Assembly (NCBI GenBank): GCA_030390025.1
Contig: CM059432.1
Location: forward strand, 14,262,001 to 14,326,000
DNA length: 64,000 nt
Direction of reading: 5' to 3'
DNA from: Squalus acanthias
Taxonomy: Eukaryota
The translations under genes and the position numbers were made by a program. Shown piece after piece: positions 1 to 41,149 of this stretch. Each line of letters begins with the position of its first letter. Position 1 is the first letter of the stretch. The notes under the pieces are model-generated. The model was not told the DNA's origin. It ran no database searches and saw nothing but the letters and a program-made list of their open reading frames with translations.

Positions 1-333
1 GGTGGAGCTGCAGCTGTGAGGAGGCCACCCACTTGTCAACCCGCCAGGTTTAGCTGGCATGGTTTAGGAGGGTCGTGGAATATGCTGGAAATGTGGAAAA
101 ATAACGAGGGTCTCTCAAAATAGGATTAGAGAGGCCCTTAACGACCATTTAAGGCTCTTAACAACCTCTTTGGCCTGCTGGAGGCGGGACCGTTTCGCAC
201 CCAGCAAAACCGCCTCTGGCAAAATTGCACGGAGGCGGGTTGGAGGCGGGTTCCGAACCCGCACTCATTTTTTGCGATTTTCCCACCTATCCCGCCTCCA
301 AACCCGCCTCCTCGGGGCTGGGAAAATCGCCCC
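1..333 (-). mobile_element. Partial family-A-related MITE cut by the window start
   Basis: Its end acccgcctcctcggggctgggaaaatc matches about 19714-19740 (acccgcctcctcggggctggtaaaatc). Confidence 0.65.
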
Positions 334-939
334 CCACATTTCCAATAATGCAGCACTCCTTCAGTAATGCACTGGCGTGTTAGCCTAGATTATGCACTCT
401 GGTCTACTGTGGGCTTGAATTTAGAATTGCGGGTATTGTGTATAATTATGGTATATAACACATTGGCTTGCTGTCTGGGAACCAAAAATGAATCTTTTTG
501 CCTCTGACGTTGTTTTGCTAACTCCAGCCCATCTGTCTCCTCATGTTCTCCTGGCAATCCCTTTCCAAATTTTCCTGCAGACTTATTTGCAAGCACTTTA
601 TTTAAAACCAGTATTCTTGATGCTACCTGGGGCAAACCCTGCCAGTAAGGGAACTTTTTTAATTACATAACCAAATTTAACAAAACTTTAAAATACTGTA
701 TGCATTTTATGTCAATGCTTGACATTTTTTCCTCCTGCAGTTCTCCTCTCACTTTCCTCCCCAAATCCCTGACAGTACATGTGGACCATAGTTCTATTAA
801 AAGGCGGGCCCTCTTGTATCTCAGCCAGTATTCATTCTTCATGGCTAAGCCGACAGCAAGCTATTTGGGGGCGAGGCATTGCAGGCAAGTGCCCGATTCC
901 ACCTTTAGCTGGTAGTCACACGCAAGCACCTTCTAATAG

Positions 940-1068
940 GAAACTTTTTCAGGGCTTTGGAGAAAGAGCAGGGGAGTGGGACTGATTGGATAGCTCTTTC
1001 AAAGAGCCAGCAAGGACACGATGGGCTGACTGGCCACCTTCTGTGCTGTATGATTCTATGATTCTAAT
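940..1068 (+). mobile_element. CR1 3' end fragment
   Basis: Matches the 3780-3900 tail; ends tatgattctatgattcta. Confidence 0.8.
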
Positions 1069-2875
1069 AGGAGTCAGTGGGTAGCAAGCTTGAGTGGGAA
1101 CCCTGACTGATTTTTCTTTCCCTAGCCAGGGGCCACTGCAGCCAAATCAGATCAGCCAACTCAAGAACCAGGAATCATCTAGGACCTTCTTGTGTGGCTC
1201 AGTGTCATGCCACACAGCACCCGTGAGAAAGTTTGTTATTTAAATCGGCACTACTATATATTTACTGAACTTAATGAAGGTTGAAATTAAATGTTTAACG
1301 AGTGTACCTACATTTTGAATAATTATAATCAAGAAATTCATTTCAACACACAGAAAATATGAAATGTAAAAGTGCAGCGAGAAAGCTAGTGAGGCAAAAG
1401 AGATTAAAACACACTCATTTCAAGAGTACTAAATAAAACATTTTTCTTACAGTTTCAGACCATGTTTATTAAATATTCACTCTATTTCTGATTTCCATTT
1501 CCTGCATTCACAATAAGGTGGAAACATTATTCTCGCAAGGAAACTCATTTCATTTGATATCATTGCAATGTGTCATCGGTTTGTGTTTGCTGATTATACT
1601 GAAACAATCCATTTTATGGTTTGGAAGTCAAGCTGGGCGCTTTGTAATCAGAATTACTAGGTGCTATGTTGGATAACATTTGAATTGTAGGGAATTTATT
1701 ATAAAAATAAGTAATATCACTTCCTTCCGTTCACCGGGTTGTAAGCGGAGGAGTCAACAACTTTAACCAGAAATTCTGAATTTTTACAACACAGTAAAGG
1801 TGGTGCAAAAGACTTCTCTGAGTTTGCAAATGCGTGATGTGATGATATCATCTGACTTGTAAAAACGTTCAAGGTTTGAAAAGGAAGGCTGGTCATTTCT
1901 AAAGATAACCCGTGAACACTTGGAAAGCAGGGAAACCAGTCTATTCCTAATCAAATAGGTGGTACAGTGGACCATTATAAGGGGGGGGGGTCAGGATGGA
2001 GGGCAAAATCAAGCTAGGTGGTGCCAGAGGACTGGAGAATTGCAAATGTTACACCATTGTTCAAAAAAGGGTGTAAGGATAAACCCAGCAACTACAGGCC
2101 AGTCAGTTTAACCTCGGTAGTGGGGAAGCTTTTAGAAACGATAATCCGGGACAAAATTAATAGTCACTTGGACAAGTGTGGATTAATTAAGGGAAGCCAG
2201 CACGGATTTGTTAAAGGCAAATCGTGTTTAACTAACTTGATCGAATTTTTTGATGAGGTAACAGAGAGGGTTGATGAGGGAAATGCGGTTGATGTGGTGT
2301 ACACGGACTTCCAAAAGGCATTTGATAAAGTGCCACATAATAGGCATGCCAGCAAAGTTGAAGTCCATGAAATAAAAGGGACAGTGGCAGCACGGATACG
2401 AAATTGGCTAAGTGATAGGAAACAGAGAGTAGTGGTGAACGGTTGTTTTTCAGAATGGAGGACGGTATACAGTGGTGTTCCCCAGGGGTCGGTACTGGGA
2501 CCACAGCTTTTCTTGATATATATTAATGACTTGGACTTAGGTGTACAGGGCATTATTTCAAAATTTGCAGATGACACGAAACTTAGAAGTATAGTGAACA
2601 GTGAGGAAGATAGTGATAGACTTCAAGAGGACATAGACAGGCTGGTGGAATGGACACATGGCAGATGAAATTTAACGCAGAAAAGTGCGAAGTGATACAT
2701 TTTTGGTAGGAAGAACAAGAAGAGGCAATATAAACTAAAGGGTACAATTCTAAAGGGGGTGCAGGAACAGAGAGGCCTGGGGGTATATGTACACAAATCG
2801 TTGAAGGTGGCAGGGCAGATTGAGAAAGCAGTTATTAAAGCATATGGCGGGATCCTGGGCTTTATAAATAGAGGC

Positions 2876-3273
2876 CATGATGCGGAGATGCCGGTGTTGG
2901 ACTGAGGTGGACAAAAGTGAGAAGTCGCACAACACCAGGTTATAGTCCAACAGTTTTATTTGAAATCACAAGCTTTTGGAGCGGCTGCTCCTTCGTCAGG
3001 TGAAGTGAAGAAATACAAATGGGCACAGCATATATAGACAGAGAACAATGCCTGTGCAGAGAACAATGCCAGATGACTACAGTTAATCTTTCTGACTGCC
3101 CTTTAACTGCAGTCGTCTGGCATTGTTCTCTGCACAGGCATTGTTCTCTGTCTATATATGCTGTGCCCATTTGTATTTCTTCACTTCACCTGACGAAGGA
3201 GCAGCCGCTCCGAAAGCTTGTGATTTCAAATAAAACTGTTGGACTATAACCTGGTGTTGTGCGACTTCTCACT
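2876..3273. mobile_element. Fold-back Penelope-like element (inverted pLTR pair) inserted in a CR1
   Basis: 174-bp arms 2913-3086 and 3103-3276 with a 16-bp spacer. 15-bp TSD TTTATAAATAGAGGC (2861-2875, 3274-3288). Each arm holds a hammerhead-like motif. Confidence 0.8.
3186..3223 (+). ncRNA. Minimal type-I hammerhead ribozyme motif
   Basis: Stem I tcac - CTGACGA - A - stem II ggagc/agcc/gctcc - GAAA - GCTT (palindromic AGCT in place of stem III, CUU cleavage triplet) - stem I gtga. Confidence 0.75.
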
Positions 3274-4995
3274 TTTATAAATAGAGGCATAGAGTACAAA
3301 AGCAAGGAAGTTATGATGAACCTTTATAAAACACTGGTTTGGCATCAACTGCAGTATTGTGTCCAATTCTGGGCACCGCACTTTAGGAAGGATGTGAAGG
3401 CCTTAGAGAGGGTGCAGAAAAGATTTACAAGAATGGTTCCTGGGATGAGGGACTTCAGTTACGTGGATAGACTGGAGAAGCTGGGGTTGTTCTCCTTAGA
3501 GCAGAGAAGATTGAGAGAAGATTTGATAGAGGTGTTCAAAACCATGAGGGGTTGAGACAGAGTAGAAACAGAGAGAAACTGTTCCCATTGGCGGAAGGGT
3601 TGCGAACTAGAGGACACAGATTTAAGGTGATTGGCAGAAGATTCAAAGGCGACATGAGGAAAAACATTTTTACACAGCGAGTGGTTAAGATCTGGAATGC
3701 ACTGCAATGCACTGGTGGTGGAGGCAGACTCAATTATGGCTTTCAAAAGGGAATTAGATAAGTACCTGAAGGAAAAAAAATTGCAGGGCTACGGGGAAAG
3801 GGCGGGGGATTGGGACTAGCTGAGGTGCTCTTGCAGAGAGCCGGCTCGGGCTCGACGGGCTGAATGGCCTCCTACTGTGCTGTAACCATTCTATGATTCT
3901 AGGATGAAGGAAAACCACATATCCTGTGATCTTGCAAATAGTGGGAAGAGGCTCTGGAGACAACATGAAAGCTTTTGATTGAACAGAGGAGGACAAAGAA
4001 GTATAGGATTGATCAGGGTGGGAAAGAAGTCGGCAAATCCCCCACTCCATTTTAACTGACCCCCCCCATCTGATTTCGGGGGGGTTGTGGGGGGGGAGTT
4101 AAAATCAGGAGCAATATTGTTCTTGCATTTCTAATTAGAATAAACTGCAGCGGGCATGGTGACATGCCAAAAATGGCGCAGCCACTAGCCATTGTACTTT
4201 CCATCACTCTATAGACAATTCCAGACACCTTCATTTAAAGCCGTCCTGACGATGCTTGATTTTGCCTGCCACGGATTAAACATCTGTACACATATCTAAT
4301 CTTAATTGGTGAATTGCTTCAGGTTTTGCCAAATTCTAGTGGTAAGAAGTTTCACTCACCCAAGACATAATGTTGGACAGGCATTTGAATATTACAGGAA
4401 AAGCTAGTGTCAGCATTGTGGCAGGAGGTTCGAGTTGAGTGCCATCTCTGTACGTACAAAAGCTGACCCTAGGTTTGTGGATGATACTGTTGAACGGGCC
4501 ACGTGTAGAAGATGATTGATGACCAATGATGGAGCCCTGGATCTCACCAGAGGTGATCGTGTGGAGACGGGAGGAAAATCTGTTTGAGGAGATGTAGTCA
4601 CTGCTTTGGGATGAGTAGGAATGGAAGCAGACACACAGAGGGAACCCGTGAAGGAGAAAGCGATTAGAAGAGAATGGAGAGGCCAACAATGGCGAATGTG
4701 ACAGAGAAGCTGAAGAAGACAAGGAGGGACAGTAAGCTGCAGCTGTAATCACACAAGACATCATCGGTGGCTTTGACTAGGAGCTATTACCTGGTGGAAA
4801 GTAATGTTAGTGACAGTACTAGCGGTGCACATGTTTCATGTACAGTATCTAGGTGCTGCATTTAGCTCGTTTATGTCACAAACTTCTCTATGTTGGTTGT
4901 GGATGTGCCCTTAGTTGAGGGAGTAGCCCTAGTGAATGATTGGAAGAGATACAGAAGACCCACAGTTATGGTTCAGGCTTTTGTCCCAGGTTTTT

Positions 4996-5146
4996 TGGGA
5001 ACGAAGGGAATCAAGGGACATGGGGATAGTGCAGGAAGGTAGAGTTGAGGTAGAAGATCAGCCATGATCTTGTTGAATGGTGGAGCAGGCTCGAAGGGCT
5101 GAATGGCCGACTCCAGCTCCTATTTCTTATGTTCTTACGTTCTTAT
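4996..5146 (+). mobile_element. CR1 3' end fragment
   Basis: aagggaatcaaggga...gatcagccatgatc...ctcctatttcttatgttctta tail. Confidence 0.85.
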
Positions 5147-5467
5147 AAAAACAATAGCCTCCATTGGCAGGCAGAGTCTCTTATGATCTGATACCTGCAT
5201 CTTATATTTGCAATGCATGGATTAGCATGACCAGTTTTAACAAGTAATCCCGAAGTCCACTGGAGAACACATGAGATGCCCACCATGTTCTCTTGTCTCT
5301 CTCAAAAGCCAGAATAAATCACACTTAGAGAGCAATGCATATAGGCTAAACTACTTCATCTAATAATAAAGAGAACTCAAATTACACAACAAGGTATTGG
5401 GGTAGATTTTCTGATCGGGCCACCATTTGTGTCTAAGATATTAGCACCCACCTGATAATCAGTGTGT

Positions 5468-5510
5468 TGACCCTGCCTGACCCGGCCTGACCCTGCTTGA
5501 CCCTGCCTGA
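5468..5510. repeat. 10-bp tandem repeat (TGACCCTGCC)x4
   Basis: Visible directly in the sequence. Confidence 0.8.
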
Positions 5511-6279
5511 TACAATGGAGCCAACTTCATTTACATACACTGGGTTGCAAATCCCAGTTTATTCATGGCGTTCCGATCTCTTGCCAGAACTGAAGCTGAG
5601 TAAGCAGAGCTGTGATTTATTCCTGTTATATTCATTTCCTTGATATAAACAAAGAGACTGAGAGTTTGAGAGATCTCTCACCTTGTGAGGTGAGGTGTTA
5701 ATATCTGAATATTGCTGCTTCTTCTATAACTTTTCCTCAGAGAGTCTAGAATTGTCTATTCAATTATCCATCAATCTGCATGTGTCAATGTTTCAAATAA
5801 ACTATTCTAGTTGCCAAGCAACTTTTAGACTTAATTGGTTTCTGAACAAAGGCATTGAAAAAAAGAGGACCCACTTAGGACAGACATTTCCCATTGAATA
5901 CATGGTGAAAGTCTAATTGTGTATCGGTTAACACTGCTACAAAAGAATGGGGCCCTCTCAGAAATACAGCTGGGTGAAGTCAACTTTTAAATCCGATGTC
6001 CACTATCTAACATCATGTAAAATGAAAATGCAGAAATCTCCCCGACTGTTACACTTCTAACTGCATCGACAGCTATCTAGTGACCTAGCAAGCCATTCTG
6101 TTGTATCGAAGTGCTATCAGTTTAAGAAGAAGGCCCACAGCCATCTTCTCAGGGCAACTAGGGATGGGCAATAAATGCAGCCTTGTCAGCGATGCCCAAA
6201 TCCTGAAAATGAATAATAAAACAAATCTATAAGATTTTAGAATCCCTTGTTCATAGTCCCTGTAACTTTTTTAAAAATT

Positions 6280-6698
6280 TGTTTATGGGATGTGGGCGTC
6301 ATAGGCAAGACCAGCATTTATTGCCCATCCCTAATTGCCCTTGAGAAGATGGTGGTGAGCCGCTTTCTTGAACCGCTGCAGTCCGTGTGGTGAAGGTACT
6401 CCCACAGTGCTGTTAGGGAGTGAGTTCCAGGATTTTGACCCAGCGACGATGAAGGATCGGCGATATACTTCTAAGTCAGGATGGTGTATGACTTGGAGGG
6501 GAACTTGGAGGTGGTGGTGTTCTCATGCGCCTGCTGCCCTTGTCCTTCTAGGTGGAAGAGGTCGTGGGTTTGGGAGGTGCTGAGAAGAAGCCTTGGCGAG
6601 TTGCTGCAGTGCATCTTGTAGATGGTACACAATGCAGCTACGGTATGCCGGTGGTGGAGGGAGTGAATGTTTAAGGTGGTGGATGGGGTACCAATCAA
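6280..6698 (-). mobile_element. 3' fragment of the same LINE family as 36190-37005
   Basis: LIGTPSTTLNIHSLHHRHTVAALCTIYKMHCSNSPRLL plus the shared tail. Confidence 0.88.
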
Positions 6699-6877
6699 AC
6701 TATGTTCCAAGTGAGCTAAAGGCAGCCATTAGTTTGAACCCCAAATATTCCATAGCAGCAGGGGGAGCATTCATAGGATATTATACCAATGGCCTGCATA
6801 AAAGAGGTCTCTCGAAGTCACTGGTTTTGTCATGTGCTTAAATGCAGATTGCAGTATAGCCAACTATTGCCCCATGA

Positions 6878-7217
6878 GTAAATAAAGAGAAACTGTTTCC
6901 AATGGCTGAAGGGTCGATAACCAGAGGACACCGATTTAAGGTGATTGGCAAAAGAACCAGAGGCGACATGAGGAAAAACATTTTTACGCAACGAGTGGTT
7001 AGGATTTGGAATGCACTGCCTGATCGGGTGGTGGAGGTAGATTCAATAGTAGCCTTCAAAAGGGAATTGGATAAATACTTGAAGGATATGGAAACATTTC
7101 AGGGATATGGGGAACGAGCAGGGGTGTGGGACTAACTGGATTGCTCTTCGAAAGAGCTGGCGGGAACTCGATGAGCCGAATGGCCTCCTTCTGTGCTGTA
7201 CTATTCTATGATTCTAC
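6878..7217 (+). mobile_element. CR1 3' fragment
   Basis: TRGHRFKV...FTQRVVRIWNALP...FKRELD plus the ATTCTATG tail. Confidence 0.9.
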
Positions 7218-7706
7218 AACATCATTTATGTGGAAGAAACCCGGGGTGATTTTTTTTTTCCTCTCCCTAGCTAGGATCACTTAGTATAAAGCAGGGATCC
7301 TGGTCTGTATGCTTTAGTACCACACCATTCAACTGCTACTCAACACATATCCACATCAAGCCATCTGTAGACTGTGAATTAAACAGAATACCATTTGTGA
7401 ACCCTAAAAATGCAGTCATAAAAACACTCATTTCAAATCACTATGGTTCAAGCCCGAGTTCATAACATAGGCCAAAACTACCATAAATGTGAAAAATGTT
7501 ACCTACTTGTCAGTTTGACTGCTATAGATTGTATTAGGGATGGGGAGCAGGGTGAAAGGATATTATCTCTGTCTACCACATGTTAGGCATATTGCTTACT
7601 GTCTATGCAATACAAATATACAGAAGTTGAAAATTCAAGAGCTGTGGAGAATGTGTGAGAAGAGAAGGCAGAAAGCAAATCACGTAGTGATTGAATCAGA
7701 AATGAA

Positions 7707-8550
7707 GGGCTCAATTTTCATCGGCCCGTGGAGGTGGGTTTGGAGGTGTGTGGGGTATGAAATTAGCAGATTCGGGGGTCCCGAACCCATCCCGCCCCCA
7801 ACCCGCCTCCATGCCAGTTTCCCAGGAGGCGGGTGTCCGACCTGTGCTGGGAGCCGCCTCCCCGAGGTGGGAAGGGGATTAGTGCCAATAAACTGCCTGT
7901 TAACAGATAGTTAACAGGCAGTTTTTTGCCTAATCCCTGTTTTTAGCCCTGAAGTGTGGGCTTCCCGACAGGTCCGAACCACGCTGATTTAGCGAGGCGG
8001 ACCGTCGGTCTGGAGGGCTTGGAGGGGTCGAGATGTCCGGTGTGCAGGTGAGTGATGGGTGCATGAGTGCAGAGGTAAGTGTGTTTGGTGTGTGTAAAGT
8101 GTTTTAAGAACTTGTACTTACCTTAACTTTGTCCTGCAGGCTAGCTTCCTTAAGGTGTCGGGAGTCCCTCACATCCACGGCACAGAAAGCAGAATGGCCG
8201 CGGAGCTGTCAAAAGCTGCAGTCTCTGCTTTCTGTGCTGGATTGATTTCTAACTGAGTCGAAGTACAGGGACTCACGTTAGAAATCATATTGTCAGTGTT
8301 TGACAGCTTCACAGAGCTGTCAAACGCTGAAATTTCATCTGTCAAAAGCTCTTGACAGATGAAATTTCAATGGCTGATGTCACCTGTATCCAAGGGACCC
8401 TTGATTGGCCTGTTAAGTCCGCTGGGCAGGCTTAACAAGGTCAATCAAGGGAAAATACAGTGGGTTGGCCACAAGTCGATGGAGGCGGGACTACAACCCA
8501 AAAAGTGGGAGTCCCGCCTCCATCACGTCCCCATTGACAAAATCCAGCCC
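7707..8550 (+). mobile_element. Harbinger-type MITE, family A, copy 1
   Basis: TIRs GGGCTCAATTTT / AAAATCCAGCCC; 3-bp TSD GAA (7704-7706, 8551-8553); homologous in inverted orientation to 18902-19746. Confidence 0.85.
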
Positions 8551-8574
8551 GAAGTTTCTTTCTTGGATTTTTTT

Positions 8575-8826
8575 TTATTCGTTCCGAGAATGTGGGCGTC
8601 GTTGGCAAGGCCAGCATTTATTGCCCATCCCTAGTTGCCCTTGAGAAGGTGATGGTGAGCCGCCGCCTTGAACCATTGCAGTCCATGTGGTGAAGGTACT
8701 TCCCACAGTGCCGTTAGGGAGGGAGTTCCAGGATTTTGACCCAGCGACGGTAAAGGAACGGCGATATACTTCTAAGTCAGGATGGTGTGTGACTTGGAGG
8801 GGAAACTGGAGGTGATGGTGTTCCCA
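8575..8826 (-). mobile_element. 3' fragment of the same LINE family as 36190-37005
   Basis: Shared tail gcatttattgcccatccctagttgcccttgagaagg... Confidence 0.85.
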
Positions 8827-8956
8827 CCTTGGATTGTGATGTTAGTTTTATGTTCGGTTAAGTAGCAGTCTAATGAATAAGCTCTGATCAAGGCACATTG
8901 TCCTCTATACTGTATTGTATATTCCTTTGGCTCTTAAGTAGGGACTACTTTCAGGA

Positions 8957-9150
8957 ATAAAACCAGAAAATGATGGAAACACTCAGCAGGTCAGGCAGCA
9001 TAGTTAACGTTTCAGGTCGGTGATCTTTCAAGGTCATCGACCTGAAACGTTAACTCTGTCTGTCTCTCCGTAGATGCTGCCTGACCTGCTGAGTATTTCC
9101 AGTATTTTCTGGTTTTATTTTCTGATTTCCAGTGTCTGCAGTATTTTGCT
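8957..9150. mobile_element. Fold-back Penelope-like pLTR insertion
   Basis: Inverted arms centred at about 9028; TSD ACTACTTTCAGGA / ACTACTTTAAGGA (8944-8956, 9151-9163, one mismatch). Confidence 0.78.
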
Positions 9151-9253
9151 ACTACTTTAAGGAGGTCAGTGTAAAATGATTCCTAATTCCCTGATTGTGG
9201 ATATAGTCTGCCACAAGCTGCAATGACAGCTACATGAATTGCATAAATATTGA

Positions 9254-9468
9254 AATAACAACAGAAAACGCTGGAAAAACTCAGCAGGCCAGGCAACATC
9301 CGTGGAGAGAGAAAGAGAGTTAACGTTTCAGGTCGAAACCCTCCGACGAAGGGTTTCGACCTGAAACGTTAACTCTCTTTCTCTCTCCACGGATGTTGCC
9401 TGGCCTGCTGAGTTTTTCTAGCGTTTTCTGTTGTTATTTCAGATTTCCAGCATCCGCAGTATTTTGCT
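9254..9468. mobile_element. Fold-back Penelope-like pLTR insertion (young)
   Basis: Near-perfect arms of about 92 bp (9251-9342, 9350-9441); perfect 16-bp TSD ATTGCATAAATATTGA (9238-9253, 9469-9484). Confidence 0.82.
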
Positions 9469-10089
9469 ATTGCATAAATATTGATGTTTGCAACTTGTGT
9501 TAGGATTCCGTTAAGAATGAAATATGATTTCTTTTGGTTTTCTTTGGATGGGACATTAAAGATATCCTGTGATGATTCTACTCCATTATTGTGGTAAGAC
9601 TTGTGAAAATATGTTCTTAATTCTTGTGCCATTGCAAGAATTTATCCCACAAACTGGTTTGGGAATCTGAATTTATTTTTACAAAGCTATTAGGTGTAAA
9701 TTTTATCAGATTGACAAAAGGCAGGTCAAATTCATATTTCTTCCTAAATGGTTGATGTTTGTAGAGAGTGAAAATACCATTCATTCCTGATCATTTTTTT
9801 TCAGAAGTATTTAGTTGTGCTCCAATATTACAATGAAAAGCTTCCAGGACTACAATCAGATCTCCTGTGAGACTCTGCGGCTGCCATTCCTTATAATTTA
9901 TGCTCCTGCACTGTATTTTCTTCAGTATTCTTCAGTATTCACATCCTTTAAACTACATCACTGGAGATGGAACTGTTCTATTTTTATATGACCTTCACCA
10001 ATACATCAGAAAATGACTCTCAGGATTGCTACTGTGTTTGGCAGGTATGTATTTGATGAATCCTCAGTCTGAATTCACTTCCAGTACTA

Positions 10090-10495
10090 TTAAACATCCA
10101 CTGCCTCCACCATCGGCGCACCGTGGCTGCAGTCTGTACTATCCACAGGATGCACTGCAGCAACTCGCCAAGGCTTCTTCGGCAGCACCTCCCAAACCCG
10201 TGACCTCCACAACCTAGAAGGGCAAGGGCAGCAGGTGCATGGGAACACCATCGCCTCCAAGTTCCCCTCCAAGTCACACACCATCCTGACTTGGAAATAT
10301 AATCGCCGTTCCTTCATCGTGGCTGGGTCAAAATCCTGGAACTCCCTCCCTAACAGCACTGTGGGAGTACTTTCACCACATGGACTGCAGCGGTTCAAGA
10401 AGGCGGCTCACCGCCACCTTCTCGGGGGCAAATAGGGATGGGCAATAAATGCTGGCCTCGCTATAGACACCCATATCCCGAGAATGAATTAAAAA
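10090..10495 (+). mobile_element. 3' fragment of the same LINE family as 36190-37005
   Basis: GSKSWNSLPNSTVG...LQRFKKAAH plus the shared tail. Confidence 0.88.
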
Positions 10496-11224
10496 AGTAT
10501 GGAGATTATTTATAAGGTTTGTAGAGGGCGCAGTGGTGAGGCATGTTGGTGGTAGGATACAGATTTGGACCCAATTATCCAAGTAGAAACGTTCTAATCT
10601 GCTGTACAAGGGTGGAACCAAGCAATTGCCAGCCAAATGGATACAGGAAATAACAGAGGAAAGGCACACCAGCCTTCTATTGCAGCCCTGGTAGCTGTAG
10701 ATTAGCAGGTCCTGCCAGATTACAAACTCCATCTTGCAGACTGAATCTCACTTGTTGCCTAACTGATGCACTGATAGTTAAAGGACTGACTATAAATGCT
10801 CATAATCAAACTGATTGATAATTACTGGAATCAAAGGAGCATCTGTAAATATTTGTACTCTCGGTCAGCAGAGCCCTGCTGCCCTCCCCTCTTCCCAGAC
10901 TATCTCCACCTCCCTTTAGGCTGGGAAATGGGACATGGTCCTAAATGAGCAAAATAAAATGGTGTCTAATAGCACTAGAAACAATCCGTATAAGAATTGG
11001 AGTTAGAACTCGCTATTACTGATTCTAATAGAAAGCTAATTGGCAGCTGTGATAATGACTGGAGTCAGCGGATTTAGAAGTTGGCACTCCAGGTCTTTAT
11101 GATGATGGCACTGTAACTAAGCAAACCAGCTGGCTATGGAGATTAAAGCAGTCTGAATGCTTAAAACATTTTCAAGTTATAGAACTATACAAGTTTAGAG
11201 AAGATTAGAAGTTTGCTGAAAGAA

Positions 11225-11682
11225 AGACTTGCATTAATATAGCGACTTTCACGACCACCGGAGGTCCCAAAGCGCTTTACAGCCAATGAAGTACTTTTTG
11301 AAGTGGAGTCACGGTTGTAATGTAGGAAACGCGGCAGCCAATTTGCGCACAGCAAGCTCCCACTAACAGCAATGTGGTACTGACCAGATAATCTGTTTTT
11401 TGTTATGTTGATTGAGGGATAAATATTAGCCAGGACACCGGGGAATAACTCCCCTGCTCCTTCTTCGAAATAGTGCCTTAGGATCTTTTCTGTCCAACTG
11501 AGAGGGTAGACAGGGCCTCAGTTTAACATCACATCTGAAAGACGGCACCTCCGACAATGTAGCACTCCCTCAGCAATGCACTGTCTACCTAGATTTTTGT
11601 GCTCAGTGTCTGGAGTGGGGCCATCAACCCACAACCTTCTGACTCAGAGGTACAGGTGCTACCAACTGAGCCACTGCCAACA
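11225..11682 (-). mobile_element. Full-length tRNA-derived SINE with L2-like tail (DeuSINE/SacSINE1-like)
   Basis: The minus strand starts gcagtggctcagttggtagc (A-box). Its body is shared with 51083-51505 and 57310-57530. Tail ...gtgaaa.gcgctatat.aatgcaagtc. The family name is from recollection, not from an alignment. Confidence 0.8.
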
Positions 11683-11689
11683 CAGCACA

Positions 11690-11920
11690 GATGAGGCCAT
11701 CATCCTAGAACAATCCAAAACTAATCCCTACTGCCCTGCTCTCCCCGTAGCCCTGTACCTTCCTTTGCATCAAATATTTATCCAGTTTTCTATTAATTGT
11801 CTCTGCCTCAGCCATTTCCTTTTCTATACCCCAACAACCCTCTGAGTAAATGCATTTCTCCACTCCTCTCTCCTTTCTCTCAGTGACACTTTTAAATTGC
11901 TGACCCCTCGTTACTGACCC
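11690..11920 (-). mobile_element. Degenerate CR1 3' fragment
   Basis: TRGQQFK...RKLDKYL..VQGYGESRA on the minus strand. Confidence 0.65.
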
Positions 11921-12326
11921 ACCCCCCCCCCCCGCCCCCCAGCCAGAAGAGATAGTGGGGGTGAAATTGGTCAAGGGTGGTAGCACAAAATGGGGGATGG
12001 TGAATCGGCAGCCTGTTTGATATCCCGCCAACTTTCTATTCCAGGGAAATTCCAGATACTGGCCCGATGATGATGAAGGAATGGCAATATATGTCCGAGT
12101 CAGGGCTGCGTATTAGCTCGAAGTGATGATGTTACGCGGATCACAAAACGCCATGGAGTGAGTTCATAGAAGTTGTGCTGAAGGAGGAAGCTTTCTGATG
12201 TGTAGTAGCTTCAGGAAAAACAATGGAAGGGGGAAAAGGGAAATGAGACTGAATCTAACATAATAACAATGATTTAAAGGAGGATTTCAGCCATTGTTTT
12301 TGTTTTAAAAACAGAAAATGCTGGAG

Positions 12327-12548: not shown

Positions 12549-12795
12549 TAATCGAAAGATGAGGTGCTGTTCCTCGAGCTTACGTTGAGCTTCATTGGAA
12601 AAGTGTAAGAGACCGAGGACAGAGAGGTCAGAGTGGGAGTGGAGCGGAGAATTAAAGTGACAGGCGACCGGAAGCTCGGGGTCACGCTTGCAGATTGAAC
12701 GGAGGTGTTCCGCAAAGTGGTCACCCGATCTGCTGCATATTTCCAGCATTTTCTGTTTTCATTTCCGATTTCCAGCATCCGCACTATTTTGCTCT
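12549..12795 (-). mobile_element. Penelope-like element fragment: GIY-YIG endonuclease C-terminus joined to an oppositely oriented pLTR tail
   Basis: The minus strand reads DHFAEHLRSICKRDPELPVACHFNSPLHSHSDLSVLGLLHFSNEAQRKLEEQHLIFRL. 12729-12795 on + matches the tail of the hammerhead-bearing repeats (ctgctg..tatttccagcattttctg...gatttccagcatccgca). Confidence 0.8.
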
Positions 12796-22389: not shown

Positions 22390-22968
22390 ACATAGATACA
22401 TAGATACATAGAAGATAGGAGCAGGAGTAGGCCATCCGGCCCTTCGAGCCTGCTCCGCCATTTAATGAGATCATGGCTGATCCTCCAATTCAGTATCCCG
22501 TCCCCGCCTTCTCTCCGTAACCCTTAACCCCTTTTGCCTGTAGAAATATATCTAATTCCCTCTTAAATATATTTAATGAGCTGGCGTACACTGCCCTCTG
22601 TGGCAATGAGTTCCACAGGTTCACCACCCTCTGAGTGAAGAAATTCCCCCTCATTTCTGTCCTAAATGGTTTAGCCCTTATCCTTAAATTATGTCCTCTA
22701 GTTCTGTTCTCACCCGCCAAGGGAAACATTCCTTCTGCATCTAGTCTGTCTAGACCTGTCAGAATTTTATACACTTCTATGAGGTCCCCTCTCAATCTTC
22801 TAAACTCCAGTGTGTACATCCCTAAACTACATAGTCTCTCCTCATAGGTCAATCCCGCCATTCCTGGTATCAGCCTGGTGAATCGCCGCTGCACCCCCTC
22901 CATGGCAAGAACATCTTTCCTCAGATGAGGCGACTAAAACTGTACACAGTACTCGAGGTGTGGTCTCA
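22390..22968 (-). mobile_element. Young CR1 3' fragment, nearly identical to 55077-55646
   Basis: Open ORF2 C-terminus 22490..22903; (CATAGATA)n tail. Confidence 0.95.
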
Positions 22969-23456
22969 GGCCAACATCCCCAGCATCGAAGCTTTGACCA
23001 CGCTCGATCAGCTCCGATGGATGGGTCACATTGTCCGCATGCCCAATACGAGACTCCCAAAACAAGCGCTCAACTCAAAGCTCCGACACGGCAAGAGAGC
23101 CCCAGGTAGGCAGAGGAAACGCTTCAAGGACACCCTCAAAGCCTCCTTGAAAAAGTGCAACATCCCCTCCGACACCTGGAAATCCCTGGCCCAAGACCGC
23201 ACAAAGTGGAGGAGAAGCATCCGGGAAGGCGCCGAACACCTCGAGTCTCTTCGCCGGGAGCAAGTGGAAGCCAAGCGCAAACAGCGGAAGGAGCGCACAT
23301 CAACCCAAGCACCCCACCCACCCGTCCCTTCAACCACTGTCTGCCCCACCTGTGACAGAGACTGTAGGTCCCGCATTGGACTCATCAGTCACCTGAGAAC
23401 TCATTTTTAATATGGAAGCAAGTCATCCTCGGTTCCGAGGGACCGTCTAAGAAGAA
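22965..23456 (+). mobile_element. RTE-clade LINE 3' fragment
   Basis: QLRWMGHIVRMPNTRLPKQ...GRQRKRFKDTLK...CPTCDRDCRSRIGLISHLRTH (C-terminal C2H2); (AAG)n tail. Confidence 0.9.
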
Positions 23457-24744: not shown

Positions 24745-25465
24745 CATGTATGGTCTGCCCAGTTGTTCCGGGACATCAGTGGCCTAAATAGCATTCCTTA
24801 ACGGAACCACTGGAGGCTGCCTTCAAAAAAATAAGAAAACTTTGTCATCATTTTATTTCTGCAGAATCAAGAGTGCTTCTCCTGGCTCCACGAAAATACT
24901 GCAGCCTCACTGCTGGCCCAGGCCCCAGGCCCCAGGCCCGCCTCTCTCCGGTTTGCCATTTCCCACCCAGGACTACCTGCGGGCCAGCCGTAATTCCTAA
25001 GGCCCCGATCAGGTGCCCCTATGCACCTGGCCGGATTAATTCAATTGCGGCCCGATGACAAGTTTGGCTCGGGGGCCTCTTGCTGATGTTTTTTTGGTGC
25101 GCGTTCGATTGTGCTGTCCATTTTGCGGCAGAAACCGGCACGATCTGAATTTTCTCCCCAACGCCATAACCTGTCTTTTCTCTTCACAGATTCCAACTGG
25201 CGTAAAAGCCTACTTCCAGCATCTTCTGTTTTTATTTTAGATTTTCAACATTTGCAGTTTTTCTTTTTTTACTTTAAGGTCAAAAGAAATGGAAAGACTT
25301 GCATTCATATTGTGTTTTTCACAACCTCACTTCAGCATTAATGATCTGACACTGGATCTCACTACCACAATTATGTTTACAGAACACAATAAAGATACTT
25401 AGGAGTAAACATTCATTATCACGCTGGCATTTTCTCTATGTTGGGTTCTTTAAACTGATAATATT

Positions 25466-30145: not shown

Positions 30146-30688
30146 GTGTCACGAAGGCAGCCCAGAAATGACAGAATGAGTTAAACAAAACATGTGAGCC
30201 GGCTGAACAATGACAGATGAAATTTAATGCAGACGACTGTAAAGTTCTGCCCACAGGATCAATGTAAATGAAAATTGGGCGGTTTCTAAAACGGGCAGCC
30301 AATCCGCAATGCTGGGCGGCACTGAAAATCTACCCTTCTGTTTCTCTCGTCTAACTAGTTTTTAATCCAATGTTCTACCTTATCCTAATTTCATACACCT
30401 TAGTCCTCTCCAATAGTCTCCCATGTGGCACCTAACTGAGAATAAATTGCTTCAACACCTAAACCTACATTGTTCTCAGCGTAAGCATAGTCATACCAAG
30501 ACCTGAATATATCAATGTACTCCTCCAGTAAATACCATGTAATGAAAATGGACAATATTTTCATAAGTTATATGTACTTTTGACAACTCAATTATAAAAG
30601 CTGTAAAATATGTCTCAAAACTGACAGAAAGGAGAAGTACTCACCTTTGGGAATAGTTATGATTGTTCTAATAAAGGTATAGTCCACA

Positions 30689-31519
30689 TGACAAGGCCTT
30701 GGACAACGTGGACCACTTTCCATACCTCGGGAGCCTACTGTCAACAAGGGCAGACGTCGATGACAAAGTCCAACACCGCCTTCAGTGTGCCAGTGCAGCC
30801 TTCGGTCGCCTGAGGAAAAGAGTGTTTGAAGACCAGGACCTCAAACCCGGCACTAAGCTCATGGTCTACAGAGCAGCAGTGATACCTGCCCTGCTGTATG
30901 CCTCAGAGACATGGGCCATGTACAGCAGGCACCTCAAAGCACTGGAGAGGTACCACCAACGCTGCCTCTGCAAGATCCTGCAAATCCATTGGCAGGATAG
31001 GCACACCAACGTCAGTGTTCTCGCTCAGGCCAACATCCCCAGAATCTTAGCTTTGCCCACGCTCGATCAGCTCCGATGGATGGGTCACATTTTCCGCATG
31101 CCCGATACGAGACTCTCAAAACAAGCGCTCTACTCGGAGCTCTGGCACGGCAAGAGAGCCTTAGGTGGGCAGAGGAAACGCTTCAAGGACACCCTCAAAG
31201 CCTCCTTGAAAAAGTGTAATATCCCCACCGACACCTGGGAATCACTGGCCCAAGACCGCACAAAGTGGAGGAGAAGCATCCGGGAAGGCGCTGAACACCT
31301 CGAGTCTCTTTGCCGGGAGCAAGCAGAAGCCAAGTGCAGGCAGCGCAAGGAGCACATGTCAACCCAAGCACCCCACCCACCCGTCCGTTCAACCACCGTC
31401 TGCCCCACCTGTGACAGAGACTGTAGGTCCCGCATTGGACTTATCAGTCACCTGAGAACTCATTTTTAATGTGGAAGCAAGTCATCCTTGGTTCCGAGGG
31501 ACTGCCTAAGAAGAGAAGA
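30689..31519 (+). mobile_element. RTE-clade LINE, 5'-truncated, with TSD
   Basis: Open 256-aa ORF end (FPYLGS...VIPALLYASETW...LRWMGH...C2H2); 10-bp TSD ATAGTCCACA (30679-30688, 31520-31529); AAG-rich tail. Confidence 0.93.
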
Positions 31520-32775: not shown

Positions 32776-33682
32776 ATTGCAAAGGGCAGGGAAATATTCC
32801 TCCTGTTACATTTGAAATAGACCAACCATTCAACTATTAATGAAACAAGTTTACACACTAAAATTACATTTATTGTCATAAGAAATCCTCCCAGCAATGT
32901 ACAAAAAACAACTGAGAACAATTGTTAAAATAACCTTTAAAACATGACTATGACTGTCTAGATTAGCATCCTAAACCAACCTGACGGTGCAGATAAATAC
33001 ACTGGATAACTAAATGCCCTAAGAGAACACCAACATGCAGCCTGAATGGGATGAGTGGGAAATATGTGTGTTACGCCTTCATGTGAAGAATGAGGACTAA
33101 GCTGTACCTTTCTTCGTTTATTATACCCCGCATACCCTGGATTATTTTCCCACGGTAGTTCACGCAGGAAAGAAAAAGAAGCTTGTTCACCACGCATCCA
33201 GAGCAGGGCAAAGCTCTGTCATGTTGCACACTTGTGTCACTGCACAAGTAAAATTAACATTACATAGCAGAAGTAAAATTAGTAGCACTTGTTGAAAGAG
33301 AGTTGATTGCTCACAACTTTGTTGGAACGTCACTAACCCAACACAATAGGCAACAGAGTTTGGCTGAGTACACCGTGATTCCATTAGGATTCCCTAACCT
33401 TTTAGCTGATGGCAAAGAATGATGCAATGAACTAGCTGAGAATTTGGTCATTGTTTTGACCTAAAGGCTTTGTTCAGTTAGACGCAGCATGGTCAGATTG
33501 TCTTAGTTATACGATCAGTTTAAGATTTCACCTGCTGCTCACATAGTGGAATTCGTAGTTCTTTTCAGACATGTTAGCAACAAGGTAGAGGAGGCACAAT
33601 AACGTCCGCCAAATGCAATTTAGACAGCACCGTACGCAGGAATTGCAGAATACTAATAGGTCTATCAGTTTTTAATAGTCAG

Positions 33683-33717
33683 GTTCTGACGAAAGGTCAT
33701 CGACCTGAAACGTTAAC
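33683..33717 (+). ncRNA. Minimal type-I hammerhead ribozyme motif
   Basis: gtt - CTGACGA - A - aggtc/atc/gacct - GAAACGTT (palindromic ACGT, GUU triplet) - aac. Confidence 0.75.
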
Positions 33718-33780
33718 TCTGTTTCTCTCGCCACAGATGCTGCCTGACCTGCTGAGTATTTCCAGCATTTTGTGTTTTTA
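33684..33780 (+). mobile_element. 97-bp solo Penelope-like pLTR insertion
   Basis: Flanked by a perfect 15-bp direct repeat TTTTTAATAGTCAGG (33669-33683, 33781-33795); same family as the 8957 and 9254 elements. Confidence 0.8.
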
Positions 33781-33864
33781 TTTTTAATAGTCAGGCAATT
33801 GGTGCTGGAATCCCCATCTTTTCTAGCAGGGGTGATTCATTCTGTACGAACGAGCAAAGACTGA

Positions 33865-37005: not shown

Positions 37006-37580
37006 TTACATTTACTCTATCTAAACCCTTCATGATTTTAAACTCCTCTATCAAATCTGTTCCAAGGAGAACAACCCCAGCTTCCCTAGTCTATCCACAT
37101 AACTGTAATCCCTCATCCCTGGAACCATTCTAGTAAATCTCTTCTGTACCCTCTCCAAAGCCTTCACGTCCTTCCTAAATTGTGGTGTCCAGAATTGGAC
37201 ACAATGCTCCAGCTGGGGCCGAACTAGTGTTTTATATAGGTTTAGCAGCACTTCCTGGCTTTTATAGTCTATGGGGTAAAAATTCAGTTGGTTGCGCCTC
37301 CCGTTAGTGCCTTAAAAGGGCGCTAATGGGGCGTTAAGGCGCTAACGCCCGGGCGCAGCGCTGTTTGCGCCGCTCGAGAACTTAACTTGAGATTGTGCGG
37401 CGGCGCTAAAACTTACCGTTGCGACCACCTGCGCGCGCAGATTGTGACGTCATTCCGTGGTGCAACGCCCTTGGGGCGCCCCGGAGCGGAAATTGAGTGG
37501 CGCCCCCTGCCTTACCGCCTGGCGCTTCCAACGACCGGAAGACTGGAACGTTATCAATCGGTGTGGGGCTGGGGGGGGGC

Positions 37581-37590
37581 GCTATTTAAA
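37581..37590 (+). promoter_or_regulatory. Candidate TATA-like box for the transposase gene
   Basis: GCTATTTAAA about 200 bp upstream of the ATG. The same motif is kept in the deleted relative (TTTAAATAGC at about 21258, opposite orientation). Confidence 0.45.
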
Positions 37591-37785
37591 GGGGGCCTCT
37601 TCCTGTCTTTTTCTGTGGTCGACATTTATGCACCACTCGTTCTGAGAGAGAGAGAGAGATTCGGAGAGAGAGAGAGAGAGACTTCTACATTGACTCAACG
37701 CTTTGTGAGGTAGTTTGGCCTAGTTCATCCTAACTTTGCTGCTACTTTCGTTGCTGTACCTCATTACTTTTCTGGCAAAGAGAAT

Positions 37786-38946
37786 ATGGGGGCTGCAATG
37801 ATTGGGGGCGTCGTCCTGCTCCAGCTCAATCGGAGGATAGTGAGACGCAGACAGAGAGTGGCAATGATGGCCAGACGGAGGAGGGCCATCAGGCGCATGT
37901 ACAGGAGAGCTTACCCTCCCAGGGTATATCGTGAACAGCTCTCCTACATCCACATGTCCAAGGAGCTGTGTTTGCGAAGGCTGCGATTCAGCAAGGAGGT
38001 GGTCACTGAGCTCTGCCACCTGCTGCAGCCAGATCTGCAGCCTCAGCTGAGGTCCAGGACGTCTCTGTCGGTGGCAGTGAAGGTCACAGTGGCTTTGAAC
38101 TTCTACGCCACTGGCTCATTCCAAGCTGCTGTTGGGGACCTCGCCAATATCTCCCAGTTTGCGGTGCATCGCTGCATCCGGCAGGTCACCAATGCCCTCT
38201 TCACAAGGAGACGAGACTTCATCTCCTTCCCTATGACCCCAGACAAGCAGCATGACCGTGCTATGGGCTTTGCGAGGGTAGCGGGCTTCCCCATGGTGCA
38301 GGGCGCCATTGACTGCACGCATGTGGCTTTGCGTGCTCCGCGAGAGAATGCAGAGGAGTTCCGGAACAGAAAGGGGTTCCATTCCTTGAATGTGCAGCTG
38401 GTCTGTGACCACAGACAGGTGATTCTCGCTGTCAATGCCCACTATCCGGGCAGCTGCCACGATGCTTTCATCCTGCGCCAGAGTACTGTGGCAGAAATTT
38501 TCGAGGCACCGCATCAGCCAGTTGGTTGGCTTCTGGGGGACAAGGGGTACGCATTGAGCACCTGGCTGATGACACCGCTCCGTACGCCAAACACCCCTGC
38601 TGAGCTGCGGTACAATGAAAGCCATCAAGCAACCAGGAACATTATTGAGCGCACAATCGGCGTGCTCAAACAACGATTCCGCTGTCTGGACCATTCCGGA
38701 GGAGCCCTGCAGTACTCTCCTGAGCAAGTTTCCAAATTCGTAGTGGTGTGCTGCATGTTGCACAACATGGCAATCCTCAGGACGCAGCCAATGCCACCAG
38801 GCCTTGCAGCACCACAAGAGGAGGAGGAGGAAGAGGAGGAACAGGCCGAGGACGATGATCAGCAGCAGCACCAAGGCAGGAGGGCGGCCCACAATGGTCA
38901 AACTGCAAGGGCCGTCCGTCAACGACTAATAGCAAGCCGCTTCTAG
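37786..38946 (+). CDS. Harbinger DDE transposase (HARBI1-like), 386 aa, uninterrupted
   Basis: Motifs typical of PIF/Harbinger transposases: N-terminal HTH region (VTVALNFYATGSFQAAVGDLANISQFAVHRCI), GAIDCTH, FRNRKGFHSLNVQLVCD, PGSCHDAFIL, LLGDKGY, YNESHQATRNIIERTIGVLKQRFRCL, CCMLHN, then an acidic tail. Confidence 0.96.
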   Translation: MGAAMIGGVVLLQLNRRIVRRRQRVAMMARRRRAIRRMYRRAYPPRVYREQLSYIHMSKELCLRRLRFSKEVVTELCHLLQPDLQPQLRSRTSLSVAVKVTVALNFYATGSFQAAVGDLANISQFAVHRCIRQVTNALFTRRRDFISFPMTPDKQHDRAMGFARVAGFPMVQGAIDCTHVALRAPRENAEEFRNRKGFHSLNVQLVCDHRQVILAVNAHYPGSCHDAFILRQSTVAEIFEAPHQPVGWLLGDKGYALSTWLMTPLRTPNTPAELRYNESHQATRNIIERTIGVLKQRFRCLDHSGGALQYSPEQVSKFVVVCCMLHNMAILRTQPMPPGLAAPQEEEEEEEEQAEDDDQQQHQGRRAAHNGQTARAVRQRLIASRF

Positions 38947-39057
38947 GGCCCCTGCCAGTGCTACAAACATGAATCAACCCAGCACGCAACCCCTAAGCCG
39001 GCCAAGGCACCAATAATTCCAACCACCAGCCATGTATATTTTGAATACAGAAACTTA

Positions 39058-39113
39058 TTTATTGTACAAACTCTGTGTGTGTCAATTCCTCATGACAAAC
39101 TCATAGAAATAAA
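39058..39113. terminator. Opposed polyadenylation signals of the two convergent Harbinger genes
   Basis: AATAAA on + at 39108-39113 downstream of the transposase stop. TTTATT at 39058-39063 is AATAAA on -, downstream of the Myb stop. Confidence 0.5.
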
Positions 39114-39240
39114 CACAAAAAAACAGTCAATAACATAACTGGTTCTCACAACCTGGAGATAATGTCCAAAACACTAAACAAAAGTTGGGCCATGAACCTC
39201 GGCCTTTAATAAAAAAATGACCAGCATTTTGGCACACCTC

Positions 39241-41149
39241 CTACTTTTTGCCCTTCGAGGGTGATCTCCTTCCCTTGCGCACTTCCCCCCTTCTAACCCT
39301 ACTGCTCCTCCGTAATGGGACCTCAGTGGCTGCAGCAAGGCTGGTGGAAGGCTGCTGCTTGTCAGACCCTGACACTGCAGATGCCCCTGAAGGACGGCCT
39401 CGACCACTTCTGGGCCTGGAGGGCCCGGCTGCAGACTGCACCAACTCTGCATGGGCGGCAGCAGTCTGTCCTACAGGCGGTGGCAAGTGCAGTGGAGAAG
39501 TGACAGTGTTGGCAGCAGGAATGCTGTCATCGTGAGAGAGGACAGCAACTCCCTGCTCGCCCGACACACTGGCACTCCCACGGGGCAGCACTTCAGCATC
39601 CGGAGCAATTTGCCGGAGAACAGATTGCTGGCCTGCTGCGGCGCGGTGACAGCCCCGGGGACATGTGCACGAACCATCGAGGATGGCAGCAGTCAATGCT
39701 CGCGTGGCCTCAATCTGAGTCTGCATGAGAGCAGTCAGAGATGGGTTCCTGGCAGCCAGTGACTGAATTGCAGCACTAAGCTTTAGTGTGGCATCCGCCT
39801 GTGCTACAGCGAAGTGCTCCACACTCCTTGCCAGTGCCTCAATGCATTCGGGCACCCTTCCCACTGCACCCATGAGCTCAGTGTGCATGCCCACCGCCTG
39901 GCTGTTCATTTCTGCAATCAGCCGCTCCTCCTCTGCGTCCATTGCATTAGGAGTGTCTGGCATACTCTCCCTCTGGGGAGAAGGCTCCCGTTCTTCCCTC
40001 CCCCCCCCATGGCGTGGCTGCAGCCCGCTGGGTCCTGGAGCTTCACCATCATCAGCCCCTTCCCCCCTGCTCCCCCGTTCTTCCCTCCCCCCCCAATGGC
40101 GTTGCTGCAGCCCGCTGGGTCCTGGAACTTCACCATCATCAGCCCCTTCCCCCCTGCTCCCCTCCGGGGAAGGCGTGTTCCCAGTGTGGCCATGGGCTTC
40201 CTCGGGAGAGGGTGGCACTGATGCTCCGGCTTCCTCTTCCTCCTCAGCTGCAGCATCACTCCCAGTGGCAGCTTCAGGGACCATCTCCTCAGCTGGTGAA
40301 TCACCATCTGAAAGCAGGGAGGTACAAGAGTGGCTTTAGTGTGAGGACAGGGTGGCAGTAAGGGAGGAATAAGTGCAGCGAGTTAGCAAGTTGGATTGAA
40401 AGTGTCAAAGGCTGGTATTGTGAGGGACAAGTGGAAGGACAGAGGACAAAAAGGTGATGACCTTACCATTGCTGTCCACAACGGGGTCGGCGTCTCCAGT
40501 GGCGACGGGACCGATCACCCGGCTTGCCACAATCCTGTGGACGCGCTCCTCCAGATCGCTGAGGGGTTGCAGCTGAAGCCGCCCTCCACCCGTCCGTTGC
40601 TGCTGTCTCCGATTATGAGCCAGCTTAGCCTGCAAGAAAAAGGACAGCATCTGAGTCAATATACAGCCATGGTCTTGCTGATGTGCCTCCCATAGGTGAA
40701 TAGCCCTTACAATATGCAGCCATGGTCTTGCCTGATGTGCCTCCCATAGGTGAATAGCCCTTACTGTATGCAAAGTGTGGAATGTGTGTGTGTGTTTGAT
40801 GAAAGGGCCATAGGTGTTGCATGAGTGTTGTGCATTGGGGTTTTAAGACCCTCTGGCCATAGAGTGAGGTTGAGATGGAGGGATGGAGAGGTATTGAGAA
40901 AAAGCCACTCACCCTGACGACCCGAGTGAGGTCGTTGAACTTTTTGCGGCACTGAACATGGGTCCTGGGCACCATGCTCCTGGAGGAGACGCTCTGAGCC
41001 ACCTCCCTCCACACTCTTCTGAACTCGCGTGGCAAAGGCCTCCTGCCACTCTCCGGGAACAGCATGCATCGTCTGCGCTCCACTGCGTCAACCAGAGCAT
41101 CCAAGGCCCGCTCGGTGAAGCGATGAGCGCGTTCTCTCACCCTCTCCAT
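39241..41149 (-). CDS. Harbinger Myb/SANT-like DNA-binding protein, 3 coding exons, about 488 aa
   Basis: Exon 1 41149-40913 (79 aa: MERVRERAHRFTERALDALVDAV...WREVAQSV...RTHVQCRKKFNDLTRVVR, donor GTGAGT, phase 0). Exon 2 40629-40467 (acceptor tttttcttgCAG; AKLAHNRRQQQRTGGG..., donor GTAAGG, phase 1). Exon 3 40307-39241 (acceptor ctgctttCAG), which reads in frame into ORF 39241..40284 and ends in a basic NLS-like RRSSRVRRGEVRKGRRSPSKGKK. Confidence 0.9.
39988..40161 (-). repeat. In-frame 87-bp (29-aa) tandem duplication in Myb gene exon 3
   Basis: GSRGEGADDGEVPGPSGLQQRHWGGREER / GSRGEGADDGEAPGPSGLQPRHGGGREER; period 87 bp. Confidence 0.9.
40664..40764. repeat. About 53-bp tandem duplication in Myb gene intron 1
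   Basis: cagccatggtcttgc(c)tgatgtgcctcccataggtgaatagcccttac occurs twice. Confidence 0.85.

Follow-up and report, generated by a model that had tools for sequence, protein, structure and literature searches.

An inverted hammerhead-bearing insertion in a Squalus acanthias LINE is probably a truncated product of a longer Penelope-like repeat

A LINE in a 64,000-nucleotide stretch of Squalus acanthias DNA (the window, meaning the whole stretch that was analysed) is split by a fold-back insertion that is likely the doubled-back 3′ end of a longer, abundant repeat, a dead-end product of a Penelope-like element (PLE) and not a mobile unit. The insertion is a new example of a PLE pattern already published for many animals, in which an inverted copy of the terminal repeat (pLTR) is accompanied by a tail on one side. 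An earlier note on this DNA had taken the hairpin for a non-coding, ribozyme-bearing mobile unit, a reading contradicted by related sequences that continue past the centre of the hairpin. The link that the note had drawn to PLEs, minimal hammerheads, and inverted pLTRs has been strengthened by a 37-nt tail, by TATA-like and initiator-like (Inr) motifs, and by AT-rich targets.

The near-perfect hairpin of 364 bp described in the earlier note was confirmed, with arms of 174 nt each that are 98% complementary, stand 16 nt apart, and differ at 3 of 174 positions (3110/3079, 3115/3074, and 3212/2977). The features of the insertion and its host are collected in Table 1. A perfect 15-bp direct repeat flanks the insert, and since the right arm ends on the first TTT of this repeat, the true target duplication is 12–15 bp; the insert proper runs from 2876 to 3273 or 3276. 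The tail belongs to the left arm only, making the hairpin asymmetric, and the inverted repeat on the left begins 37 nt inside the insert end. On the minus strand, the order of parts in the left copy is spacer, arm, and tail, so the two copies stand head to head with both 3′ ends facing the target. The family sequence fits past the spacer to 3104–3105, so that 2–3 nt overlap the beginning of the right arm. The hairpin occurs once within the window. A 15-bp duplication inside a CR1 had been proposed; the perfect repeat and an RT-coding LINE around it both stood (RVT_1 match at 2018–2665, E = 4.6e-25), and we take the host to be CR1-type by its protein motifs and not by way of a repeat library. 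When the insert and one copy of the repeat are deleted in silico, the LINE frame becomes continuous through the site, and a second LINE copy (55953–56168) has the target site once, unduplicated. The host is 67–81% identical to its other copies in the window. A possible stem-loop in the tail folds no better than shuffled sequences (z −1.43), and an open frame of 54 codons in the left copy was not regarded as coding sequence.

Table 1. Positions in the window of the insertion, its parts, and the LINE that it interrupts
Feature	Positions	Strand	Basis
Host LINE, decayed RT gene split by the insertion (ends of the range unmapped)	2018..3900	+	RVT_1 match, restored frame
Target-site duplication, left copy, 15 bp, AT-rich	2861..2875	+	direct repeat
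37-nt tail, left arm only; last bases are the ATG at 2878–2876	2876..2912	-	arm comparison
Left arm, with the 3′ terminal repeat of the element in sense orientation (pLTR-like)	2913..3086	-	arm comparison, relatives
Left-arm hammerhead motif, G12>A at 2977 (CpG site), predicted inactive	2966..3003	-	
Left TATA-like box (3036–3030) and Inr-like TCACT (3008–3004), A at 3006	3004..3036	-	
16-nt spacer, extra 5′ part of the left copy	3087..3102	-	arm comparison
Right arm, inverted tail-less copy; own changes at 3110 and 3115; last TTT within the duplication	3103..3276	+	
Right TATA-like box (3153–3159) and Inr-like TCACT (3181–3185), 21 nt apart	3153..3185	+	
Intact minimal type-I hammerhead motif	3186..3223	+	descriptor match, folding
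Target-site duplication, right copy	3274..3288	+	direct repeat

The left half of the locus (2780–3110) was compared with four of 23 public runs listed, X5, X15, X21, and X22, which yielded related sequences in 13,572 contigs, 2,612 contigs, 15 reads, and 0 reads, respectively; contig depths in these data are not copy numbers, and figures for loose ends refer to the 13 rows listed of 302. Among the rows listed, tailed ends at 2876/2877 occur in 30 contigs of X5, 10 contigs of X15, and 3 reads of X21, and tail-less ends occur at 2913 (41 contigs) and 2908 (22 contigs). The flanks at these family ends are unrelated to one another and AT-rich, with an agreement of 0.38–0.48. Loose ends are also found at 3100 and 3105. 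Past 3105, the relatives share one sequence that is not the right arm (22 contigs of X5 with an agreement of 0.96, and 4 of X15), which is visible for only about 30 nt. The element is therefore longer than this copy, and because its relatives pass the centre of the hairpin without turning back, the centre is not a family trait. The single opposite-strand joint listed lies at 2916/3006 and not at 3102–3105. A few single contigs show joints that go back on the element, such as from 3006 to 2876, and a head-to-tail tandem is absent at the locus. No contig bridging the locus's own junctions is among the rows listed. In 8 of the 10 joint rows listed (12 contigs of X5 and 4 of X15), the LINE site at 2870–2873 is joined to a tail-less end at 2915–2924, which tentatively suggests that the site has been used repeatedly by independent insertions, the short side of these joints being only 20–24 letters long.

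The relatives also help to assign the three differences between the arms. Position 2977 reads G in 90% of the depth of X5, in 99.7% of that of X15, and in 3 of 3 reads of X21, so the A found here is a minority letter at a CpG and not a feature of the family; neutral CpG decay after insertion is the likely cause. Among the relatives, no difference from the left arm is listed at 3074 or 3079 at the 5% level, which places the origin of the other two mismatches in the right arm. CpG decay was considered for a second arm difference and rejected, as only 2977 fits among the letters of the relatives. The two right-arm changes at 3110 and 3115 lie at most 13 nt from the turn, neither is a CpG loss, and the change at 3110 perfects an 8-nt palindrome. 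Two further candidates were set aside. An 18-bp duplication in both arms does not serve as a marker of a common template, since relatives occur with it and without it, and a depth profile in X15 that is higher over the tail and falls across 2948–2983 was not used, as the RNA origin of X15 is a guess and contigs show neither RNA levels nor RNA ends.

A second hammerhead-bearing family is present at 8 loci in the window, with 3 of the 8 being fold-backs with a one-sided tail (8951–9150, 9251–9468, and 53118–53420) and 3 of the 8 carrying duplications of 13–16 bp (13, 16, and 15 bp). In the first two fold-backs, 8944–9163 and 9238–9484 with their surroundings, only the right arm has a tail, about 27–30 nt long; their spacers measure about 4 and 7 nt and their duplications 13 bp (1 mismatch) and 16 bp, respectively, and both turn inside the hammerhead core. 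The third is older, with 83% identity between its arms, a spacer of about 22 nt, a tail on the right, and an extra inverted stretch of 52 nt; a target duplication was searched for at this fold-back and none was found. A single tail-less copy at 33669–33795 starts 2 nt before the core; its duplication, a perfect one of 15 bp, is similar to the target at 2861–2875. Its intact minimal hammerhead at 33686 combines the same core with a different 5-bp stem II and an ACGU palindrome. The remaining copies are short, decayed, and single (12724–12793, 25211–25262, 58802–58852, and 62664–62714). Elsewhere in the window, a Harbinger-like DNA transposon at 37273–41506 (DDE_Tnp_4 at 37714–38943, Myb/SANT at 40628–41167) has inverted ends starting with GGGGTA and a 3-bp duplication, and sits in another copy of the host LINE, 3 nt past the sequence duplicated at 2861–2875. 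Two plus-strand open frames, 22835–23407 and 30675–31466, each have a single weak match to a C2H2 zinc finger at their end, which falls short of the Pfam cut-off.

At the locus under study, both 3′ ends of the element are joined to the two ends of a 12–15 bp stagger, and from this arrangement we infer target-primed reverse transcription by a PLE protein. In the sequence of events that we propose, the GIY-YIG endonuclease of the PLE would make a staggered cut, 12–15 bp apart, and the 3′ end of the top strand would serve as primer for reverse transcription, which would start from the tail end of an RNA. This template would have begun upstream of the pLTR promoter and would not have been cut at its hammerhead, or would have been religated. 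The RT would drop off after about 229 nt, and the new cDNA end would fold back on 2–3 complementary bases with a 16-nt loop and extend along itself. Synthesis would then stop, or the product would be cut, at the tail boundary, and the end would be joined to the other target end at the TTT overlap. The state of the template is tied to an observation at the locus: both arms extend through the predicted cut site, so the template RNA was uncut or religated. Under this scheme, the changes at 3110 and 3115 are possibly errors of the fold-back step.

We consider it probable, with moderate confidence, that the centre of the insertion was made by such a snap-back of one cDNA rather than by two separate cDNAs. 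Spacers of about 4–22 nt are found in 4 of 4 fold-backs (this insert and the three second-family loci), and short spacers in all four favour snap-back. Equal arms with spacers this short have P ~7e-4 if arm lengths are independent, under a crude exponential null with arm lengths taken by eye. Six inverted pairs were left out of this test: I3, I6, I7, and I11 match neither hammerhead family, and in I4 and I10 the paired arms belong to neighbouring insertions. The alternative, to which we give a distinctly smaller though still appreciable share of belief, is that both nicks primed synthesis while a dimeric protein held the two RNA templates, one start lying at the tail end and the other at the tail-less site, and that the two 5′-truncated copies were then joined by microhomology. 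This account would explain the exact coincidence of the right-arm terminus with a common family end (2913, 41 contigs among the rows listed), and a second template could be the source of the right arm's own two changes near the turn, which are not CpG losses. It also has a precedent in the anole PLE, which cuts and extends both strands, has a start site at either boundary of the tail, and has been modelled in dimeric form (PMC11167929). However, independent truncation of two cDNAs does not predict near-equal arms, and spacers of at most 22 nt recur in 4 of 4 cases. Snap-back of a single cDNA is therefore the reading that we carry forward.

The identity of the parent is drawn from the architecture of the insertion. 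The locus has a one-sided tail of 37 nt, within the 30–40 bp range, with both types of end common among its relatives; 5′ truncation with an adjacent inverted copy; and a short duplication of 12–15 bp in an AT-rich target, AT-rich flanks being found at both family ends as well. In the excerpts consulted of PMC8557442 and PMC8969392, an inverted 5′-truncated copy and a one-sided tail of 30–40 bp are given as general traits of PLEs. The terminal repeat carries both the hammerhead motif and putative promoter motifs: in each arm, TATATAT is followed 21 nt later by TCACT, immediately 5′ of stem I. This TATA/TCACT layout occurs at 7 sites on both strands of the window, which corresponds to roughly 0.01 sites in 174 nt. 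Downstream of the Inr-like site, the first ATG is formed by the last three bases of the tail and may be the start codon of a parent ORF. A MITE or foldback DNA transposon has inverted repeats at both termini and belongs to a family uniform in length and centre; this class was rejected for the insertion, given the inset of its left inverted repeat and the lack of a common centre among its relatives. A scan of metagenome, viral, and genome contigs with a 23-mer pattern gave 0 matches. Two matches from a 20-mer scan (L001 and L002) covered only 21–24 nt in contigs of 60–65% GC and were put down to chance. No description of this repeat family was found in the literature searched; repeat libraries were outside its scope and may hold one.

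A different parent would be a non-autonomous pLTR derivative, comparable to a non-LTR retrozyme or a SINE, that was moved in trans by a PLE protein, with the insert itself still a truncated fold-back. We think this rather unlikely. Its appeal lies in the coding content of the window, where no ORF for RT and GIY-YIG is linked to the insertion: a GIY-YIG match was found in 0 of the 109 ORFs of at least 95 aa, and the other RT pieces are LINE-like. The short stretch of shared sequence upstream, about 30 nt, would likewise suit a non-autonomous parent. In addition, pLTR-related retrozymes are reported from the one chondrichthyan sampled, with a mean consensus of 363 bp, in the portion available of bioRxiv 10.64898/2026.07.22.740005. 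On the other hand, a non-LTR retrozyme would be recognized by a head-to-tail tandem with sense hammerheads, whereas the locus is a head-to-head pair, and no tandem array other than one with a 10-bp unit was found in the part of the window searched (1–12000). The ending of the tail on ATG is also what would be expected if a parent ORF followed.

The hammerhead core that had been reported for the right arm was borne out at 3186–3223. Stem I (3186–89/3220–23, 4 bp) is followed by CUGACGA (3190–96), one extra A, stem II (3198–3202/3207–11, 5 bp), GAAA (3212–15), and AGCU (3215–18), with a CUU site and a predicted cut after 3219. The motif thus has the CUGANGA and GAAA boxes, the NUH site, and the helices I and II of a minimal type-I hammerhead, together with an extra base after position 9, a G10.1–C11.1 pair, and a palindrome for helix III. 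The left motif departs from this description at G12, which is catalytic in the hammerhead; the G>A change claimed for 2977 was upheld by comparison of the arms. With a relaxed descriptor of the minimal hammerhead, the window yielded 2 sites and a set of 30 Markov control windows yielded 1; in folding, the 38-nt motif is only modestly ahead of its shuffles (z −2.06, 7 of 200 as good). A search with the Rfam hammerhead models, which had been suggested as a check, gave no match in three scans, whether at E ≤ 5, at E ≤ 10 on 3160–3276, or at the gathering score in the window. Matches to Rfam miRNA models were below the gathering score, reflect the hairpin shape, and were discarded. Among relatives, variation at the 5% level falls in loop II (2983) and outside the motif, and in the core only at 2977. 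Stem I position 2967 varies in 9% of the depth of X5 with no listed partner, and stems I and II show no paired changes at the 5% level. The motif is conserved within the family, with no covariation seen at this level.

Whether such a motif could act at this locus depends on its partners. A 2-nt loop cannot close hammerhead stem III, so a second copy in the sense orientation is needed, and with the two motifs on opposite strands no dimer can form in cis here. Cleavage of minimal hammerheads as dimers is cited in the excerpt available of PMC6765202. In the parent, the hammerhead would cleave as a two-copy dimer through AGCU. Computed folds of a read-through RNA of the insert are hairpins of about −339 or −334 kcal/mol. 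In the RNA of the whole insert, the pairing probability of stem II falls to ~1e-19 on the plus strand and ~1e-17 on the minus strand, versus 1.0 in the isolated right arm. Each motif is thus predicted to be locked in a 174-bp duplex of the read-through RNA. The model energy of a double hammerhead is −21.7 kcal/mol, versus 2 × −11.3 kcal/mol for the monomers and −30.7 kcal/mol for a non-hammerhead dimer, and on folding grounds alone the double hammerhead has no advantage over the monomers or the other dimer. By these models, the hammerhead would be a sequestered passenger at this locus.

The reading of the earlier note, that the hairpin of 401 bp moves as a non-coding unit in its own right and has its RNA processed by its own ribozymes, would fit the clean duplication, the near-identical arms, and the one intact motif. 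It is contradicted by relatives that do not turn back at 3102–3105, with the listed opposite-strand joint located elsewhere (2916/3006), and it also faces a single copy in the window and motifs that lie on opposite strands and are predicted to be sequestered; we regard it as very improbable. A fold-back artefact of sequencing or assembly, which the absence of the locus's own junctions from the rows listed for another sample might suggest, is scarcely credible given that the arms differ at three positions, that only one side has a tail, and that the host frame is restored once the 15-bp duplication is taken out.

The ends of other copies may hold a record of RNA processing in the parent. Among the joint rows listed, from a table with 6 further rows, six have a 5′-side breakpoint within the element, at 3006 (twice), 2969, 2971, 3055, and 2944, each from a single contig. 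Four of these six lie at most 2 nt from the predicted start (3006) or the predicted cut (2969, 2971), a clustering with P ~1e-4 in a post hoc comparison with a uniform null. No position is listed in the public runs where many molecules begin or end, and in the anole no RNA ends were found at the hammerhead cut site (PMC11167929). That copy ends record the in vivo start and hammerhead cleavage of the parent RNA is a weak lead, and we would expect it to fail sooner than hold. If it were true genome-wide, the minimal PLE hammerhead would cleave in vivo and the cleaved RNA would be reverse transcribed; short spacers, if likewise general, would establish cDNA snap-back as the origin of inverted pLTRs. 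The origin of inverted pLTRs and in vivo cutting by minimal hammerheads are both left open in the parts at hand of PMC8557442, PMC4209133, and PMC11167929. A single locus matters little alone and is one data point among truncated PLE-type insertions. In a very abundant family whose duplications are precise, many fossil products are available, and both questions could be tested by counting junctions. Long hairpin insertions such as this one would also yield double-stranded RNA if transcribed.

Comparison with known systems places the insertion among PLE products. The portion available of PMC3846280 describes a rotifer Penelope in which the TATA box precedes TCACT by 20 bp; this element has a tail of 31 bp, a shorter pLTR in inverted orientation, and a duplication of 9 bp. 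Like Pen2a of Adineta in that source, the locus joins a head-to-head inverted copy to a one-ended tail, of 37 nt here and 31 nt in Pen2a. A short duplication, an AT-rich target, and a TATA motif about 20 nt before TCACT are shared with the PLE insertion units in the sections seen of PMC8557442 and PMC3846280. Unlike those units, the locus has no ORF between its repeats, the copy being reduced to 227 + 174 nt, and its duplication measures 12–15 bp versus 8–10 bp in the rotifer examples in the same part of PMC3846280. With the minimal hammerheads of PMC4209133, as far as its available text goes, the motif shares the core boxes, the extra base between positions 9 and 10.1, the G10.1–C11.1 pair, a 4-bp helix I, and the palindrome for helix III, and motifs in that study sometimes lie 100–700 bp apart on opposite strands. 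Helix II measures 5 bp here versus 7–8 bp in the Schistosoma families described there, and the Results and Discussion of that paper contain no shark motif among their examples. Animal non-LTR retrozymes are likewise non-coding, pLTR-related, and equipped with a type-I hammerhead, but in the excerpts available of PMC7229834 and bioRxiv 10.64898/2026.07.22.740005 they form head-to-tail tandems with at least two sense ribozymes, in contrast to the head-to-head copies with one sense motif per strand found here. PAc, a Poseidon element of Anolis carolinensis, uses unprocessed RNA as its main substrate, and its cleavage needs the protein (PMC11167929). The insertion resembles PAc in its two 3′ ends that bound a tail, its AT-rich targets, the joining of both target ends to 3′ ends of the element, and a template that passes the hammerhead site. 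The ORF of PAc starts at stem II, with the tail about 111–118 nt into the ORF (PMC11167929), whereas here the first ATG is the end of the tail. As for the palindrome, the available portion of PMC3846280 invokes self-priming on an antisense template, whereas fold-back of the cDNA is the origin favoured here.
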